A model generated the notes under the pieces. It did not search any database. It saw nothing but the letters and a program-made list of their open reading frames with translations, and had not been told where the DNA came from. Positions 8,937 through 13,868 of a stretch of DNA of 64,000 nt are shown in pieces. Numbering within the stretch: position 1 is the first letter of the stretch; every line of letters starts with the position of its first letter. Source of the stretch: Enterobacteria phage RB33. The stretch lies in the sequence record KM607001, one strand, 5' to 3'. Both the position numbers and the translations under genes were made by a program.

Positions 8937-10256
8937 TCATACATAAAACACATCATAACGACCACGGGTAACACCAACATAAAGAAGCTGCTGTGCTAGT
9001 TCAGCATCTGCATAATGAATACAAGGTGTATAAATGAAAGCACGATCTACAGACATGCCCTGAGCTTTATGGAATGTTGACGCAGGAAGTGCTTTCACTT
9101 TACTGAACTGTGATTTAGCATCCCAAAAATCACTCCACGGAGCTTTTCCGCCTTTGTTCCAATTTTTATAAGTTTCTGCCGTTTTACCTAAAAATAAATT
9201 AAACTTATATAGCTCTTCATCAGATGAAATTATTTTAATCTTTTCACGATAATATTCATCATCGCCGTAAGTTTCTACTGTTAAATCCCAATGACGAATT
9301 AAGTATTCTCCAGAAACACCACGAGCTTTAACAAAGGTTGATGTATACTCTGCTTCTATAATACGAACTAATTGTCCGTTATTAAAAATAATTTCTGACA
9401 CAGGCTTTCCATCAATTTTATATGTTTTAATTAATGGTTCCTGCATTACAATAATTTCACCGACAATAAAATCTTTATCAGTTTCAAAAATCTTTTTACG
9501 AATAATGCTATTTAACTTGTCAACAGATTTATTCGTAAATGCCATTACGCGATTTTCAAACAAATCATCTAGTGATTTGACGATTGAAAAATAATTTACC
9601 ATAAAATCGCGTAAAGCGGTATCACCAGTAAATCCACGTACTCCATGCCCGTCAACAACTTTATCATAAATCCACTTACCATTACGAACATCAGTAGCTA
9701 CATCAATAATAGGAGCATTACTGCGTTTAACTTCAGTAAGTTCACACTGATAAAAATCTTTGTGTGTAAAGAATGGACTGATATAAGCAGTGTTTTCTCC
9801 TGGGTCAACAGGTCTGATTTGCTTATTATCACCTATTCCAATTATGGTACACCATGGCGGGATAGTTGAAAGCAGAATTTTAAATAGCTTTCTATCATAC
9901 ATTGACACTTCGTCGCAGATTAATACCCTGCATTTAGCTAAATCTGGTACTTCCTTCTGTTCAAAAAGAACATTTTCTTCATATGTTACCGGGTTAATTT
10001 TAAGAATGCTGTGAATAGTACTCGCTTCTTTCCCCGACAGTTTTGAAAGAATCTTTTTAGCTGCATGTGTAGGAGCTGCCAAAATGATACCAGTTTCGCC
10101 TGTTGATATTAAAGCTTCAATGATGAACTTAGTAAGAGTAGTCTTACCAGTACCAGCAGGTCCATTAATAGTTACATGATGTTTCTTTTCTTTAATAGCC
10201 CTCATAACGATGTTAAAGGCATTTTTCTGGCCTTCTGTCAAATCATCAAATGTCAT
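8937..10256 (-). CDS. dda: Dda DNA helicase (SF1B), 439 aa
   Basis: Walker A GPAGTGKT; 439 aa as T4 Dda. Confidence 0.9.
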   Translation of the reverse strand: MTFDDLTEGQKNAFNIVMRAIKEKKHHVTINGPAGTGKTTLTKFIIEALISTGETGIILAAPTHAAKKILSKLSGKEASTIHSILKINPVTYEENVLFEQKEVPDLAKCRVLICDEVSMYDRKLFKILLSTIPPWCTIIGIGDNKQIRPVDPGENTAYISPFFTHKDFYQCELTEVKRSNAPIIDVATDVRNGKWIYDKVVDGHGVRGFTGDTALRDFMVNYFSIVKSLDDLFENRVMAFTNKSVDKLNSIIRKKIFETDKDFIVGEIIVMQEPLIKTYKIDGKPVSEIIFNNGQLVRIIEAEYTSTFVKARGVSGEYLIRHWDLTVETYGDDEYYREKIKIISSDEELYKFNLFLGKTAETYKNWNKGGKAPWSDFWDAKSQFSKVKALPASTFHKAQGMSVDRAFIYTPCIHYADAELAQQLLYVGVTRGRYDVFYV

Positions 10257-10564
10257 CGTAAATTCCCTGCAATTGGTATACTAACAATACGCCCAGTATC
10301 TAAAATTCGCTGATATAATCTTTGTGTGTCTACGTCAGGCTTAACATGTTTAACTTCTATTTTATTAAACCAAAACTTGCGTGGAGTCTCAACTAATCTT
10401 GGAATTCCCTTACCTAAAGCTAGTTGATACTGCTCTTTAAGAGTGGTAAATACTTTATCAGCAATCTTCCATTCAAAAAATACAGCAGGACGATGTTCAT
10501 CAAGCGGAACTGGCGCCGTAAATCCGTCTTTGTCTCGGTAAACTATCGCATATACATAAACCAT
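10253..10564 (-). CDS. hypothetical protein (dda.1 position)
   Basis: 103-aa ORF; ATGA overlap with dda. Confidence 0.55.
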   Translation of the reverse strand: MVYVYAIVYRDKDGFTAPVPLDEHRPAVFFEWKIADKVFTTLKEQYQLALGKGIPRLVETPRKFWFNKIEVKHVKPDVDTQRLYQRILDTGRIVSIPIAGNLR

Positions 10565-10565
10565 A

Positions 10566-11312
10566 TTATCCTCGGATAAGTTTAAAAATTGAACAATCTA
10601 GCGGGTATCCTCTTTTTAATTTGAGTTTATCAATAAATGACAAGTTTTGAAACCGCTCTACACCTTGAATAATTTTATCACACATATCATATTGCATTTC
10701 TGCTTCTGACAACTTTTTCACAATTTTCCAATCCGAGCCTTTAAGAAGAACGTTCAGTTTAACAACTTCAGCGCCTTCTGCTATGCGAGAACCATCAATA
10801 CGAGCTTTAAGTGCTATAATCGTTAGCTTAACGTCAGAAGTTTGTTTTGATTTAGAAAGCTGAGAAATGTGTTCAATTCGGTTTTCACGTTTTTTCTGTA
10901 TAGCTTTAATTTGATTATAAGTCTTTTTGATTTTAGCCCATTTCTTTTCATCTAAATTTAGTTTATGAACTTTTTTCGCAGATGAACGACCAATTCGCAA
11001 AGCAAACAAATCACGTTTTTCAATTAACTCCTCTAAAGTATAATCAGAACGAAATGTATTATACTTTTTCTTTACTGCAATAACATTCCCTTTAATGTAT
11101 CCAACGTTATTATCAAAACGTTCTAATGATAATTTCTCTCCTTCAATACGATTATCAAAAGGTTCTCCCGAGTAAGCACAAACTTTTTGGTCTAAAATGT
11201 TCTTAATGTAATTGAAGTCTAAGTTAAAATCTTTAGAACGTCTTTTTGCAGATGCCTGAGTATGCTCTAAACGACGTTTAATTTTACGAATTTGATTATT
11301 AGACAGCTTCAT
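10566..11312 (-). CDS. srd: Srd-like protein, 248 aa
   Basis: size and position between dda and modA as in T4; name not verified. Confidence 0.5.
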   Translation of the reverse strand: MKLSNNQIRKIKRRLEHTQASAKRRSKDFNLDFNYIKNILDQKVCAYSGEPFDNRIEGEKLSLERFDNNVGYIKGNVIAVKKKYNTFRSDYTLEELIEKRDLFALRIGRSSAKKVHKLNLDEKKWAKIKKTYNQIKAIQKKRENRIEHISQLSKSKQTSDVKLTIIALKARIDGSRIAEGAEVVKLNVLLKGSDWKIVKKLSEAEMQYDMCDKIIQGVERFQNLSFIDKLKLKRGYPLDCSIFKLIRG

Positions 11313-11350
11313 ATTTTTCTCACATCTTACGGACGATTTAATACTTTATT

Positions 11351-11380
11351 ACTATAACATTTTTACCTTAACTTGTAAAC
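11351..11380 (-). promoter_or_regulatory. T4-type early promoter upstream of srd-like gene
   Basis: minus strand GTTTACaagttaaggtaaaaatgtTATAGT, 18-bp spacer. Confidence 0.55.
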
Positions 11381-11393
11381 AACTTTATGTAAA

Positions 11394-11420
11394 AATGCTT
11401 TAAAAATTTCATGGTATAAT
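11394..11420 (+). promoter_or_regulatory. MotA-box middle-promoter-like motif on the plus strand
   Basis: aaaTGCTTTA-12 bp-TATAAT at 11394-11420; points antisense into the 3' end of modA. Confidence 0.35.
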
Positions 11421-11437
11421 GAATCTAAGTCCTTCCA

Positions 11438-12040
11438 TTATAGATTAAATCCTTCAAAATCAAGAGTATAGATAGTGTATGTTGAATACTTTTTGTACTC
11501 ATATCTATCTGCAATTCTAAATACACTTCCAGCTGGTATCATTACTTCTTGTTCATCTGAAACTAATTCCATATTACGATAGCGATGACTATCCGGAAAC
11601 TTAAAGTTTGGATTGTATTCTTTACAGCGTAGAGCTTTTATAGCATACTCCTGGAAATTGAATACCATAGGAGCTTTGAATTCAAAAATAACTTGTGTGT
11701 TATACTCTAAACCAGAAGCAAAATGTAGAGCTATATTTTTATCATATGAAGCTGATACGACTTTATCAAATGTAATAATATCAATTCCTTGATTTAATAC
11801 TTGCTTAGTCTCGACTGGAACACCTCTCCAAAGAGGTTTATCGTTTGGAACCAAACGAGATTTGATTATTTCATTTAACCAAGTATGGTCATCTGGTTTG
11901 TTGGTAATACAATGAATTAAAAGTTCAATTTCAGATAAATTAAACCCTTCAGAAAGTAATTCTTCACGAATAGAAGCACGCACCGATGCATCCATTGATT
12001 TTATTTTAAAATCTTTTAGTTGCATTACTGAGTATTTCAT
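11438..12040 (-). CDS. modA: ADP-ribosyltransferase ModA, 200 aa
   Basis: 200-aa ORF paralogous to adjacent 207-aa ORF; size and position as T4 ModA. Confidence 0.8.
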   Translation of the reverse strand: MKYSVMQLKDFKIKSMDASVRASIREELLSEGFNLSEIELLIHCITNKPDDHTWLNEIIKSRLVPNDKPLWRGVPVETKQVLNQGIDIITFDKVVSASYDKNIALHFASGLEYNTQVIFEFKAPMVFNFQEYAIKALRCKEYNPNFKFPDSHRYRNMELVSDEQEVMIPAGSVFRIADRYEYKKYSTYTIYTLDFEGFNL

Positions 12041-12660
12041 TCAACTACCTCAATATCATAAACTTTAAATGTTCCAAATGAATCGTGTAATTTTTCTTTT
12101 GAAATAGAAGTTATTCTATACTTTCCAATTGGAATCATCCATTCTTGTTCACGCACAATCATCATTAAGTTATCAGTACGTTCTGAATCTAATCCATCAG
12201 TATCTTCATACGTGTACTTAAACTCAGTATTAGGAGAAGAAAGTATAATATCGCTGATATGGTCAGAATAATTAAAAGCTTTATCAGTTTTTAAGCGAAA
12301 TATTATTTCAGTGAAATACTCAACATAAGAAAAACCACATGCTGTGTGCAAACTAGTAGTAAATGAATCTACCCTGTTCGTTGAAAACACTTCTCCAACT
12401 TGTAAATCTTTAATGAGTTCTTTTGTCGATTTTGATATACCACGATATAACTGATATGGTGATTTAGTTAAATGCTTTTTAATGATTTTATTCAACTGCC
12501 TATGAAGAGCTTCATTCTTTTTGGCTTCCATACATTGCCAAAGAATTGACTGTTCAAAGTCAGTAAATTTTTCACAGACCTTTTTATACATATCATATTG
12601 AAAATCAACGCTTTCAGCTTTTATAGATAACTGTTCAACATCTGCAAGATTAATAATCAT
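12037..12660 (-). CDS. modB: ADP-ribosyltransferase ModB, 207 aa
   Basis: 207-aa paralogue of ModA; ATGA overlap. Confidence 0.8.
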   Translation of the reverse strand: MIINLADVEQLSIKAESVDFQYDMYKKVCEKFTDFEQSILWQCMEAKKNEALHRQLNKIIKKHLTKSPYQLYRGISKSTKELIKDLQVGEVFSTNRVDSFTTSLHTACGFSYVEYFTEIIFRLKTDKAFNYSDHISDIILSSPNTEFKYTYEDTDGLDSERTDNLMMIVREQEWMIPIGKYRITSISKEKLHDSFGTFKVYDIEVVE

Positions 12661-12686
12661 GATAGCCTCCGTATACTTCAGAAGCT

Positions 12687-12716
12687 ATCATATCATTGTT
12701 AGAAAGGAAAGTAAAC
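12687..12716 (-). promoter_or_regulatory. T4-type early promoter upstream of modB
   Basis: minus strand GTTTACtttcctttctaacaatgaTATGAT. Confidence 0.55.
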
Positions 12717-12727
12717 AACTTTTTGAA

Positions 12728-12910
12728 TTATTTTGCCCAGGGAGCCCAAGGCGGAGGGTCAAGATGGTATGAAGCTAGTTCTTCTAGAAGAGCATCTGGG
12801 GCTTCAATTCCATAATTCTGTAATACTATACGGTACTCTTTCTTATAATCACTAGAATCATTCTGGTTATTCGTAGAATGATTATCTTCTAACATCTCAA
12901 ATAAATCCAT
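12728..12910 (-). CDS. hypothetical small protein
   Basis: 60-aa ORF in track. Confidence 0.45.
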   Translation of the reverse strand: MDLFEMLEDNHSTNNQNDSSDYKKEYRIVLQNYGIEAPDALLEELASYHLDPPPWAPWAK

Positions 12911-12918
12911 ATTAATTC

Positions 12919-13389
12919 CTAGCGATAAAAACCAAAATGACGATTAGCTTCAGCAATCTTTCTTTCTTCTTCGGACATTCTCCAGCGTAGTCCAACATCA
13001 AAATGAGCCCAGACCATCTTAACAAATGCATTTATATCTTTAATATCTTCAATAATGAATGTTTTACTTTTAAAAGGCTGACTCGCTAATTTAACTTTAT
13101 CATCTTCAAACAGGTCAAAAAGACCATATTCGTGAGCTCTTTTATAGCCTTTAATAGTTAAAGCTTCAGAAGAAGAAAATGGTGAATCTGTATTCTGCAA
13201 AATATCTTCAGTATGCTTTATAATTAGAATAATATTTTCTGGATATTTTCTTTCTTTTATATCTTTAATTAAAATATCCGGATTTTCTGCTAAAGGAATA
13301 ATTAACGAGCAATTTTTATCAAGTGTATTTACTGATTTACCTTCTTTAGACATAAATCCTATTGAATACAGTTTTGCTACTTCAATCAT
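12919..13389 (-). CDS. hypothetical protein
   Basis: 156-aa ORF in track. Confidence 0.55.
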
Positions 13390-13542
13390 GTGATTTCCTC
13401 TTGCCTACTAATGGACCATCAGGAATTTTGTTTTCCTGGATATACTTCTCATTTTCTTCCATCATTTTACTACCGATTTTAAGAAGCAAATCCAACGCTT
13501 CATTTGCTTTAACCTTAGCTTCTTCTAATGTCATATCTTTGT

Positions 13543-13746
13543 TCACGATTTATCCCCATAGATGTCTCTCATCAATTTAAGCGCTGAGCGTTCTAGTTTC
13601 TTTTCTTTCTCAGCACTAATCATTGATTTCATCCATTCTTCTGATTCGTTCTGCATTTCTTTATTTGCTTGTTCAACCCAACCATCGTCAATGTACATTG
13701 AGTTTGGTCTATTGAACCATTCAAACATTTTCTTCAGAACTTTCAT
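13543..13746 (-). CDS. hypothetical protein, 67 aa
   Basis: ORF in track; its start lies inside the proximal copy of the 91-bp duplication. Confidence 0.55.
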
Positions 13747-13868
13747 TTGTTTTACCTAAAACAACAGTAGGAGCATCGTCAATGTACATTGAGTTTGGTC
13801 TATTGAACCATTCAAACATTTTCTTCAGAACTTTCATTTGTTTTACCTAAAACAACAGTAGGAGCATC
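13683..13868. repeat. perfect tandem duplication, 2 x 91 bp with 4-bp CATC junction microhomology
   Basis: positions p and p+91 identical for p = 13683..13777. Confidence 0.9.

Follow-up and report, generated by a model that had tools for sequence, protein, structure and literature searches.

The window analyzed here is a 64,000-nucleotide stretch of Enterobacteria phage RB33 (sequence record KM607001). A promoter-like module lies in the 125-bp intergenic region between srd and modA. The 1.2 kb around it are 100% identical to Escherichia phage RB32 (DQ904452.1) and 94-98% identical to about 500 further Tequatrovirus genomes. The module is on the plus strand and every annotated gene and long ORF nearby is on the minus strand, including modA.2, modA.3, modA.4, srh, and mrh beyond modB, so the orientation opposite to every neighbor that was claimed in the first-pass annotation is correct. 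The features of the locus, in window coordinates, are:

8937-10256, minus strand: dda (from the annotation and ORF list)
10253-10564, minus strand: dda.1 (from the annotation and ORF list)
10566-11312, minus strand: srd, the gene next to the intergenic region on its low-coordinate side
11351-11379, minus strand: early-type sigma-70 promoter of srd, TTTACA (11379-11374), 17 bp, and TATAGT (11356-11351) with TG
11393-11402, plus strand: MotA box AAATGCTTTA, matching (a/t)(a/t)(a/t)TGCTTtA at 10 of 10 positions
11403-11414, plus strand: 12-bp spacer aaaatttcatgg
11412-11414, plus strand: extended -10 (TGn), TGG, the last three bases of the spacer
11415-11420, plus strand: -10 hexamer TATAAT, 6 of 6 positions
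11427, plus strand: predicted +1, A11427, 7 nt past the -10 by the spacing rule
11427-12660, plus strand: putative non-coding antisense transcript, which would enter the modA 3′ end at +12
11438-12040, minus strand: modA, encoding the RNA polymerase alpha ADP-ribosyltransferase and convergent with the antisense promoter
12037-12660, minus strand: modB, encoding an ADP-ribosyltransferase, a second possible antisense target

The MotA box, 12-bp spacer, and TATAAT are exactly as first described. The motif had been placed from 11394; it is real, with its box beginning at 11393 and 11394 lying one base inside the A/T tract. Middle promoters of T4 have a MotA box with the consensus (a/t)(a/t)(a/t)TGCTTtA centered near -30, with 12 bp as the optimal distance to the -10 (PMC2988021), and RB32 is listed with both motA and asiA (PMC2988021). 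The module has the MotA box, a spacing within 12 ± 1 bp, a -10 with TGn, and no -35, in a genome encoding MotA and AsiA. Its assignment to the MotA-type middle promoters thus holds for all of the sequence features that can be tested. No sigma-70 -35 was found at 16-18 bp (the best match to TTGACA is 0-1 of 6 positions), and a generic sigma-70 scan does not report the site, although it does report the srd early promoter.

Directly past TATAAT, the plus strand reads gaatctAAg. The predicted start at 11427 is 11 nt short of the modA stop codon (11438-11440), and modB would be reached only by an antisense RNA of more than about 610 nt.

The early promoter of srd is back-to-back with the antisense module. 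There are 13 bp between its -35 and the MotA box starting at 11393, which agrees with the 14 bp that had been counted from 11394. GTTTAC is the early -35 form of T4. The UP-element zone of this early promoter (about 11382-11404) overlaps the MotA box.

Several other sequence elements were observed near the module. The srd 5′ UTR contains a motif, CGTCCGTAAGA(T/C)G, just upstream of the srd Shine-Dalgarno (11325-11335, minus strand). It may form a 4-bp stem with a CGUAA loop, occurs once in the window, and is common to the window, T4, Mosigvirus, Dhakavirus, and Klebsiella phage Roth21; in Roth21 it falls within the spacer of the antisense promoter. The motif is not essential, since a 7-nt deletion takes half of it in the Tequatroviruses F26, G28, HY01, and Pu-Krd-SF3. 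Two adjacent ORFs on the minus strand at 13543-13837 (67 aa, 13543-13746, and 38 aa, 13721-13837) have identical first 21 residues. The RB32 record annotates this region as a possible partial srh duplication, and T4 has a single srh.

The strict consensus WWWTGCTTTA-N12-TATAAT has a single match without mismatch on both strands of the 64 kb, and this is the srd/modA site. When up to one mismatch is allowed, there are 5 matches in the window versus 0.11 expected. A loose pattern (TGCTTNA-N11-13-TANNNT) gives 17 matches on both strands versus 4.6 expected; 12 are on the minus strand, which carries the early and middle genes, and 5 are on the plus strand, where about 2.3 are expected. The weak plus strand matches are therefore near chance level, and the window statistics alone are not enough to settle whether the module arose by chance in an intergenic region that is A+T-rich and dense in promoters. 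One plus strand site with a single mismatch (ATTTGCTTTA-N12-TCTAAT, 13502-13529) lies antisense within modA.4 codons. It is found only in the window among the loci compared, is not in T4, and is probably a chance match, which lends some support to a similar origin for the module.

We compared regions upstream of srd in progressively more distant phages, which were found by tblastn with Srd. The comparison used annotated phage records; IMG/VR gave only six close relatives. The sample covers 13 genera, and the module is present at the site in 11 of these (9 enterobacterial and 2 Acinetobacter), always as an antisense TGCTTT-N13-15-TATAAT at the same syntenic position. In the enterobacterial phages, the modA homologue is on one side of it and srd, or an ORF ahead of srd, is on the other. 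The phages with the module are:

Tequatrovirus: T4 and 12 others
Mosigvirus: ESCO47, WFbE185, and RB69
Dhakavirus: MX01
Karamvirus: fGh-Ecl01
Marfavirus: Potts1
Gelderlandvirus: S16
Moonvirus: CF1
Kanagawavirus: Q7622
Klebsiella phage Roth21
Hadassahvirus (Acinetobacter): PhT2, module upstream of srd
Lazarusvirus (Acinetobacter): Kimel, module upstream of srd

The T4 copy is at 11863-11890 (2364-2391 of locus L001), has two changes in the spacer or flank, and has a predicted +1 at about 11897. The RB69 copy is at 12081-12122 on the plus strand, between srd and modA.

In an alignment anchored on the boxes, TGCTTT, TATAAT, a G at -6, and a T at -3 are invariant in 11 of 11 genera, and the spacer (12-14 bp) and flanks contain about 0-1 bit per position. 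The MotA box and the -10 are 12 bp apart in the window, T4, and MX01; this distance increases to 13 bp in the remaining seven enterobacterial genera and to 14 bp in the Acinetobacter phages. Among the 13 Tequatrovirus genomes, changes in the module are limited to two spacer positions (A/C and A/G) and TGCTTT is invariant; several indels and substitutions are seen in the half of this intergenic region closer to srd. Two invariant boxes separated by a free spacer are the footprint expected of a promoter under purifying selection.

A blastn search with the S16 module returned 82 records, with one place per genome and always at the ADP-ribosylase/srd junction. In Marfavirus, the similarity detectable by this search is reduced to an island at the -10 and start. 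We considered whether the module could be a dispersed repeat, and rejected this because it is single-copy and orthologous in the window and the other enterobacterial phages. When each intergenic region was shuffled with its dinucleotides preserved, 0-9 of 20,000 trials gave an antisense match (37-49 of 20,000 for the Acinetobacter regions of about 300 bp). The probability of a chance match is thus about 1e-4 to 2e-3 per region. The first-pass annotation had left the choice between a regulatory antisense RNA and a chance match. The second option is effectively excluded by the orthologous conservation of both boxes around a free spacer in 11 of 13 genera, across two subfamilies and within intergenic sequence that otherwise cannot be aligned, and we give it almost no weight.

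Genera differ in where the module is placed with respect to the srd early promoter. In Tequatro-, Mosig-, Dhaka-, and Kanagawavirus, it is upstream of this promoter, back-to-back with it, and overlaps the UP-element zone. In S16, CF1, and fGh-Ecl01, it is downstream, in the srd 5′ UTR. The predicted starts in these phages nearly coincide face-to-face, and binding at the two promoters would be mutually exclusive. Potts1 has an extra 63-aa ORF (gp121) between the module and the srd early promoter (1351-1542 of locus L013), which indicates that the module has remained linked to the ADP-ribosyltransferase gene, at its 3′ end, rather than to the srd promoter. A gap of about 60 bp or more separates the module from the srd early promoter in the Acinetobacter phages. 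Given this variation by genus, conservation of the module does not track the srd promoter, and an explanation by the UP element alone was rejected because the module flips from one side of that promoter to the other. What is constant is the direction away from srd, which in 9 of 9 enterobacterial genera leads into the 3′ end of an ADP-ribosyltransferase gene. Each of these genes has its own T4-type early promoter. The layout is therefore convergent: early promoter, gene, middle promoter.

The promoter may be active and yet matter through the presence of polymerase rather than through its RNA. A very stable complex of MotA, AsiA, and polymerase, favored by the consensus -10, TGn, and G at -6, could displace or occlude the srd early promoter, or could act as a roadblock or insulator against modA to srd-dda read-through at the early-to-middle switch. 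The geometry in the window and T4 would allow this, as the MotA box, 13 bp away from the srd -35, reaches into the UP-element zone of the srd promoter, and the nearly coincident starts in S16, CF1, and the Karamvirus point the same way. The invariant G-6 and T-3 in the discriminator fit selection on properties of the open complex, and a conserved RNA feature downstream was not found. The arrangements are back-to-back, overlapping, separated by an ORF in Marfavirus, and about 60 bp or more apart in Acinetobacter phages, however, so no single occlusion mechanism can serve all genera. We consider this explanation unlikely, and it is the strongest of the four alternatives weighed here.

The module co-occurs with motA in the phages sampled, with one exception. 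MotA homologues were found in 1142 phage records, including the groups with the module. Krischvirus (Makalu) is the only genus in the sample that has an ADP-ribosylase/srd junction and no module, even with a relaxed pattern, and RB49, the type of the Krischvirus group, is described by Nolan et al. 2006 (PMC1524935) as having neither a motA orthologue nor the middle-promoter consensus. Erwinia phage IT22 has motA and asiA, and no module was found at its syntenic site. This exception weakens an otherwise perfect correlation of module and motA. In IT22, modA, a small ORF, and srd follow one another with no intergenic spacer. An antisense match (TGCTTCA-14-TATAATAGGGTCAAGGAG) was seen within its srd codons (..LLYLNNIMKQ.., about 1650-1689 of locus L021, minus strand). 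The match resembles the Karamvirus module downstream of the -10, and could be a relocated promoter or a coincidence.

The conserved blocks may instead serve the sense (minus strand) RNA, as part of the srd 5′ UTR, of a modA-srd intercistronic region, or of a far-upstream element of the srd promoter, with no antisense RNA made and the resemblance to a middle promoter on the other strand a coincidence. The complement of the module is always within sense transcripts, either in a 5′ UTR or between cistrons. It abuts the Shine-Dalgarno of the next gene in several genera, and lies in the srd 5′ UTR in phages of the S16, CF1, Karam, and Roth21 types, in which a sense role is possible. The T4 site is also not among the 58 mapped middle promoters, despite searches based on the consensus. 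Against a sense role, what is invariant is precisely TGCTTT and TATAAT, which are spaced as in MotA-type promoters and have a freely varying spacer between them. These blocks cannot base-pair with one another, and searches for a structure or an Rfam family found none. The module moves from one side of the srd promoter to the other between genera, and it is absent in the motA-less Krischvirus, which keeps the ADP-ribosylase-srd junction. A sense role is, in our view, improbable.

The Acinetobacter copies differ in their context. There, the module is placed to drive a free-standing stretch that contains two GC hairpins and ends, after about 130-190 nt, at the tk.4 terminator. The promoter and leader form a dispersed cassette with 5-6 copies per genome. 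The cassette combines a MotA-type promoter (TGCTTT[AG]-14-TATAATGGTTCTACCGGTTCACCGCTC) with a leader, about 100 nt long, that has two GC hairpins (GCUGCUGCGCAGC and CGGCGCUNNGCGCCG), and it has no Rfam match. Copies were located at:

about 1180-1350 of locus L018, minus strand
about 1380-1560 of locus L022, minus strand
895-1047 of locus L025, plus strand

The copy upstream of srd contains no ORF and ends at the tk.4 terminator. In Kimel, a second copy faces in the sense direction ahead of an ORF that has a Shine-Dalgarno, which indicates that those phages use this type of sequence as a promoter. In being a dispersed middle-type promoter with a structured leader, the Acinetobacter module resembles the PmSL (promoter-middle stem-loop) elements of vibriophage nt-1, which belong to the PeSL/PmSL mobile promoter cassettes that Comeau et al. 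2014 (PMC4122927) described in T4-like phages. The enterobacterial module, in contrast, is single-copy and orthologous. Because the Acinetobacter module is part of a dispersed cassette, it may not be orthologous to the enterobacterial one. As its promoter faces a terminator and not an ADP-ribosyltransferase gene, and is antisense to no gene at all, a position antisense to modA is not a universal role.

A coding function for the predicted transcript appears doubtful. On the plus strand from 11427 to 12700, no ATG-initiated ORF of at least 25 aa with a Shine-Dalgarno was found. Downstream there are just a 35-aa GTG ORF and a 59-aa TTG ORF on that strand, which bears out the first-pass statement that no plus strand ORF follows and led us to reject a coding role. 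Two weak sites with a hairpin and T-tail were found on the plus strand within the window transcript (11822-11837 and 11841-11858), and no conserved intrinsic antisense terminator was found in RB69, S16, or MX01. A search of Rfam at the E-value threshold with window positions 10400-13000 and five related loci gave nothing relevant.

A strong 14-bp hairpin at 12658-12692 was scored as terminator-like in a scan, but was rejected as a plus strand terminator since it is the modB leader with GGAGG. On the minus strand, this hairpin is in the modB 5′ UTR. It contains both the start codon and the GGAGG Shine-Dalgarno, and an early promoter (GTTTACT..TATGAT, 12715-12687) immediately precedes it. The hairpin may be involved in translational control or be a RegB-type target.

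In phage lambda, the OOP RNA is a cis-antisense RNA to cII; its promoter is just past the 3′ end of the target, and it is a discrete 77-nt RNA with its own terminator that acts with RNase III. The module resembles OOP/cII in that it immediately follows the stop codon of a regulatory gene that is tightly timed, and faces back into this gene, so that the predicted RNA overlaps the 3′ end of the mRNA. The predicted layout has the convergent promoter and an RNA overlapping its target, and this is the same in 9 enterobacterial genera. Unlike OOP, no terminator or defined product is evident, and the promoter is predicted to depend on a phage activator. Neither a discrete 3′ end nor a conserved structure was found in the enterobacterial phages examined.

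A promoter without an ORF to serve could also be of the origin type. In T4, oriF and oriG contain a middle-mode promoter with an A+T-rich unwinding element downstream (PMC3016281), and a persistent R-loop formed by a MotA-dependent transcript from the module could likewise prime leading-strand synthesis. The module shares with oriF and oriG a MotA-dependent promoter, here predicted, with a non-coding role for the transcript (PMC3016281). It differs from them in that no origin is mapped at T4 11.9 kb and no marked unwinding element is apparent. The region from +1 to +100 is 72% A+T, which is the 87th percentile of the window and not distinctive. The active T4 origins are oriA, C, E, F, and G, and oriA is near soc and linked to a nearby MotA-dependent promoter (PMC3016281). 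From our reading of PMC2988021 together with PMC3016281, the oriA promoter is P56/69 at 16.8 kb, about 5 kb from the module, and a link between the module and oriA was rejected because of the position of oriA near soc, about 5 kb away. An origin-type function is very unlikely. A sense role, an origin promoter, and a chance match are progressively less likely in that order.

We searched for previous reports of the site. Table 1 of Hinton 2010 (PMC2988021) has 58 mapped T4 middle promoters. None of these is close to 11.9 kb, and the site is flanked at some distance by Pdda.1 (11138) and P56/69 (16813), the nearest ones. For RB69, Additional File 4 of Nolan et al. 2006 (PMC1524935) contains “Pm:12081” on the plus strand, with a low score of 7.9 and the remark “1 bp ins”, from an HMM built on the middle-promoter consensus. 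This is the orthologous site, present there only as a supplementary coordinate, and searches of the main text found no comment on Pm:12081 or on its orientation, conservation, or function. A T4 dRNA-seq preprint (GSE255091) gives 150 phage TSSs, of which 22 are antisense. A full-text literature search found no specific report of an antisense transcript or a middle promoter at modA/srd.

The module is similar to the MotA/AsiA promoters of T4 that are activated by sigma appropriation (PuvsX, PrIIB2, and P56/69) in its box, 12-bp spacing, TGn, and lack of a -35. It is unlike these in that it faces against all of its neighbors, has no ORF to express, and has a MotA dependence that is predicted. 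The module is thus an unmapped addition to a well-known promoter class, with an unusual orientation and depth of conservation. Stoskiene and colleagues are said to have found in 2007 that some good consensus matches in T4 are silent, with no transcript in vivo or in vitro. Such silent matches are the main caveat on promoter activity. Based on sequence and conservation, we consider it quite likely that the module is an active MotA/AsiA-dependent promoter. For the whole statement, an active promoter that also has an antisense or interference role, the case for and against appears evenly balanced.

If the promoter is active, we would expect the following course. About 1-2 min after infection, MotA bound at 11393-11402 would recruit RNA polymerase with AsiA-remodelled sigma-70. 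The polymerase would use the TGG-TATAAT extended -10 and initiate rightward near A11427. The product would be a non-coding RNA antisense into modA, and into modB if it is long enough. The likeliest consequence would be a temporal shut-off of the toxic early ADP-ribosyltransferase genes. Rightward polymerases would interfere head-on with those that arrive from early promoters upstream of modB and modA, and sense and antisense RNA would pair at the 3′ end of the modA mRNA. A side effect may be reduced read-through into srd-dda.1-dda.

More tentatively, the deeply conserved MotA-driven non-coding unit may be a built-in timer, in which, after sigma appropriation has been set up, the middle-mode machinery silences the early ADP-ribosyltransferase genes by antisense RNA and collision and disengages the srd early promoter. 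We regard this as possible rather than probable. The early genes targeted in this way would themselves have helped to set up the switch. According to the review by Hinton (PMC2988021), neither ModA nor AsiA explains the shut-off of early transcription. If the timer is real, the T4 early region would gain its first conserved cis-antisense regulator, and the shut-off of early transcription would gain one concrete mechanism. A consensus-grade middle promoter in the “wrong” orientation, conserved over a long time and directly behind the gene for RNA polymerase alpha ADP-ribosylation, is a candidate for antisense or interference control. Its location indicates that promoter lists confined to sites upstream of genes can overlook conserved non-coding transcription units in phages.
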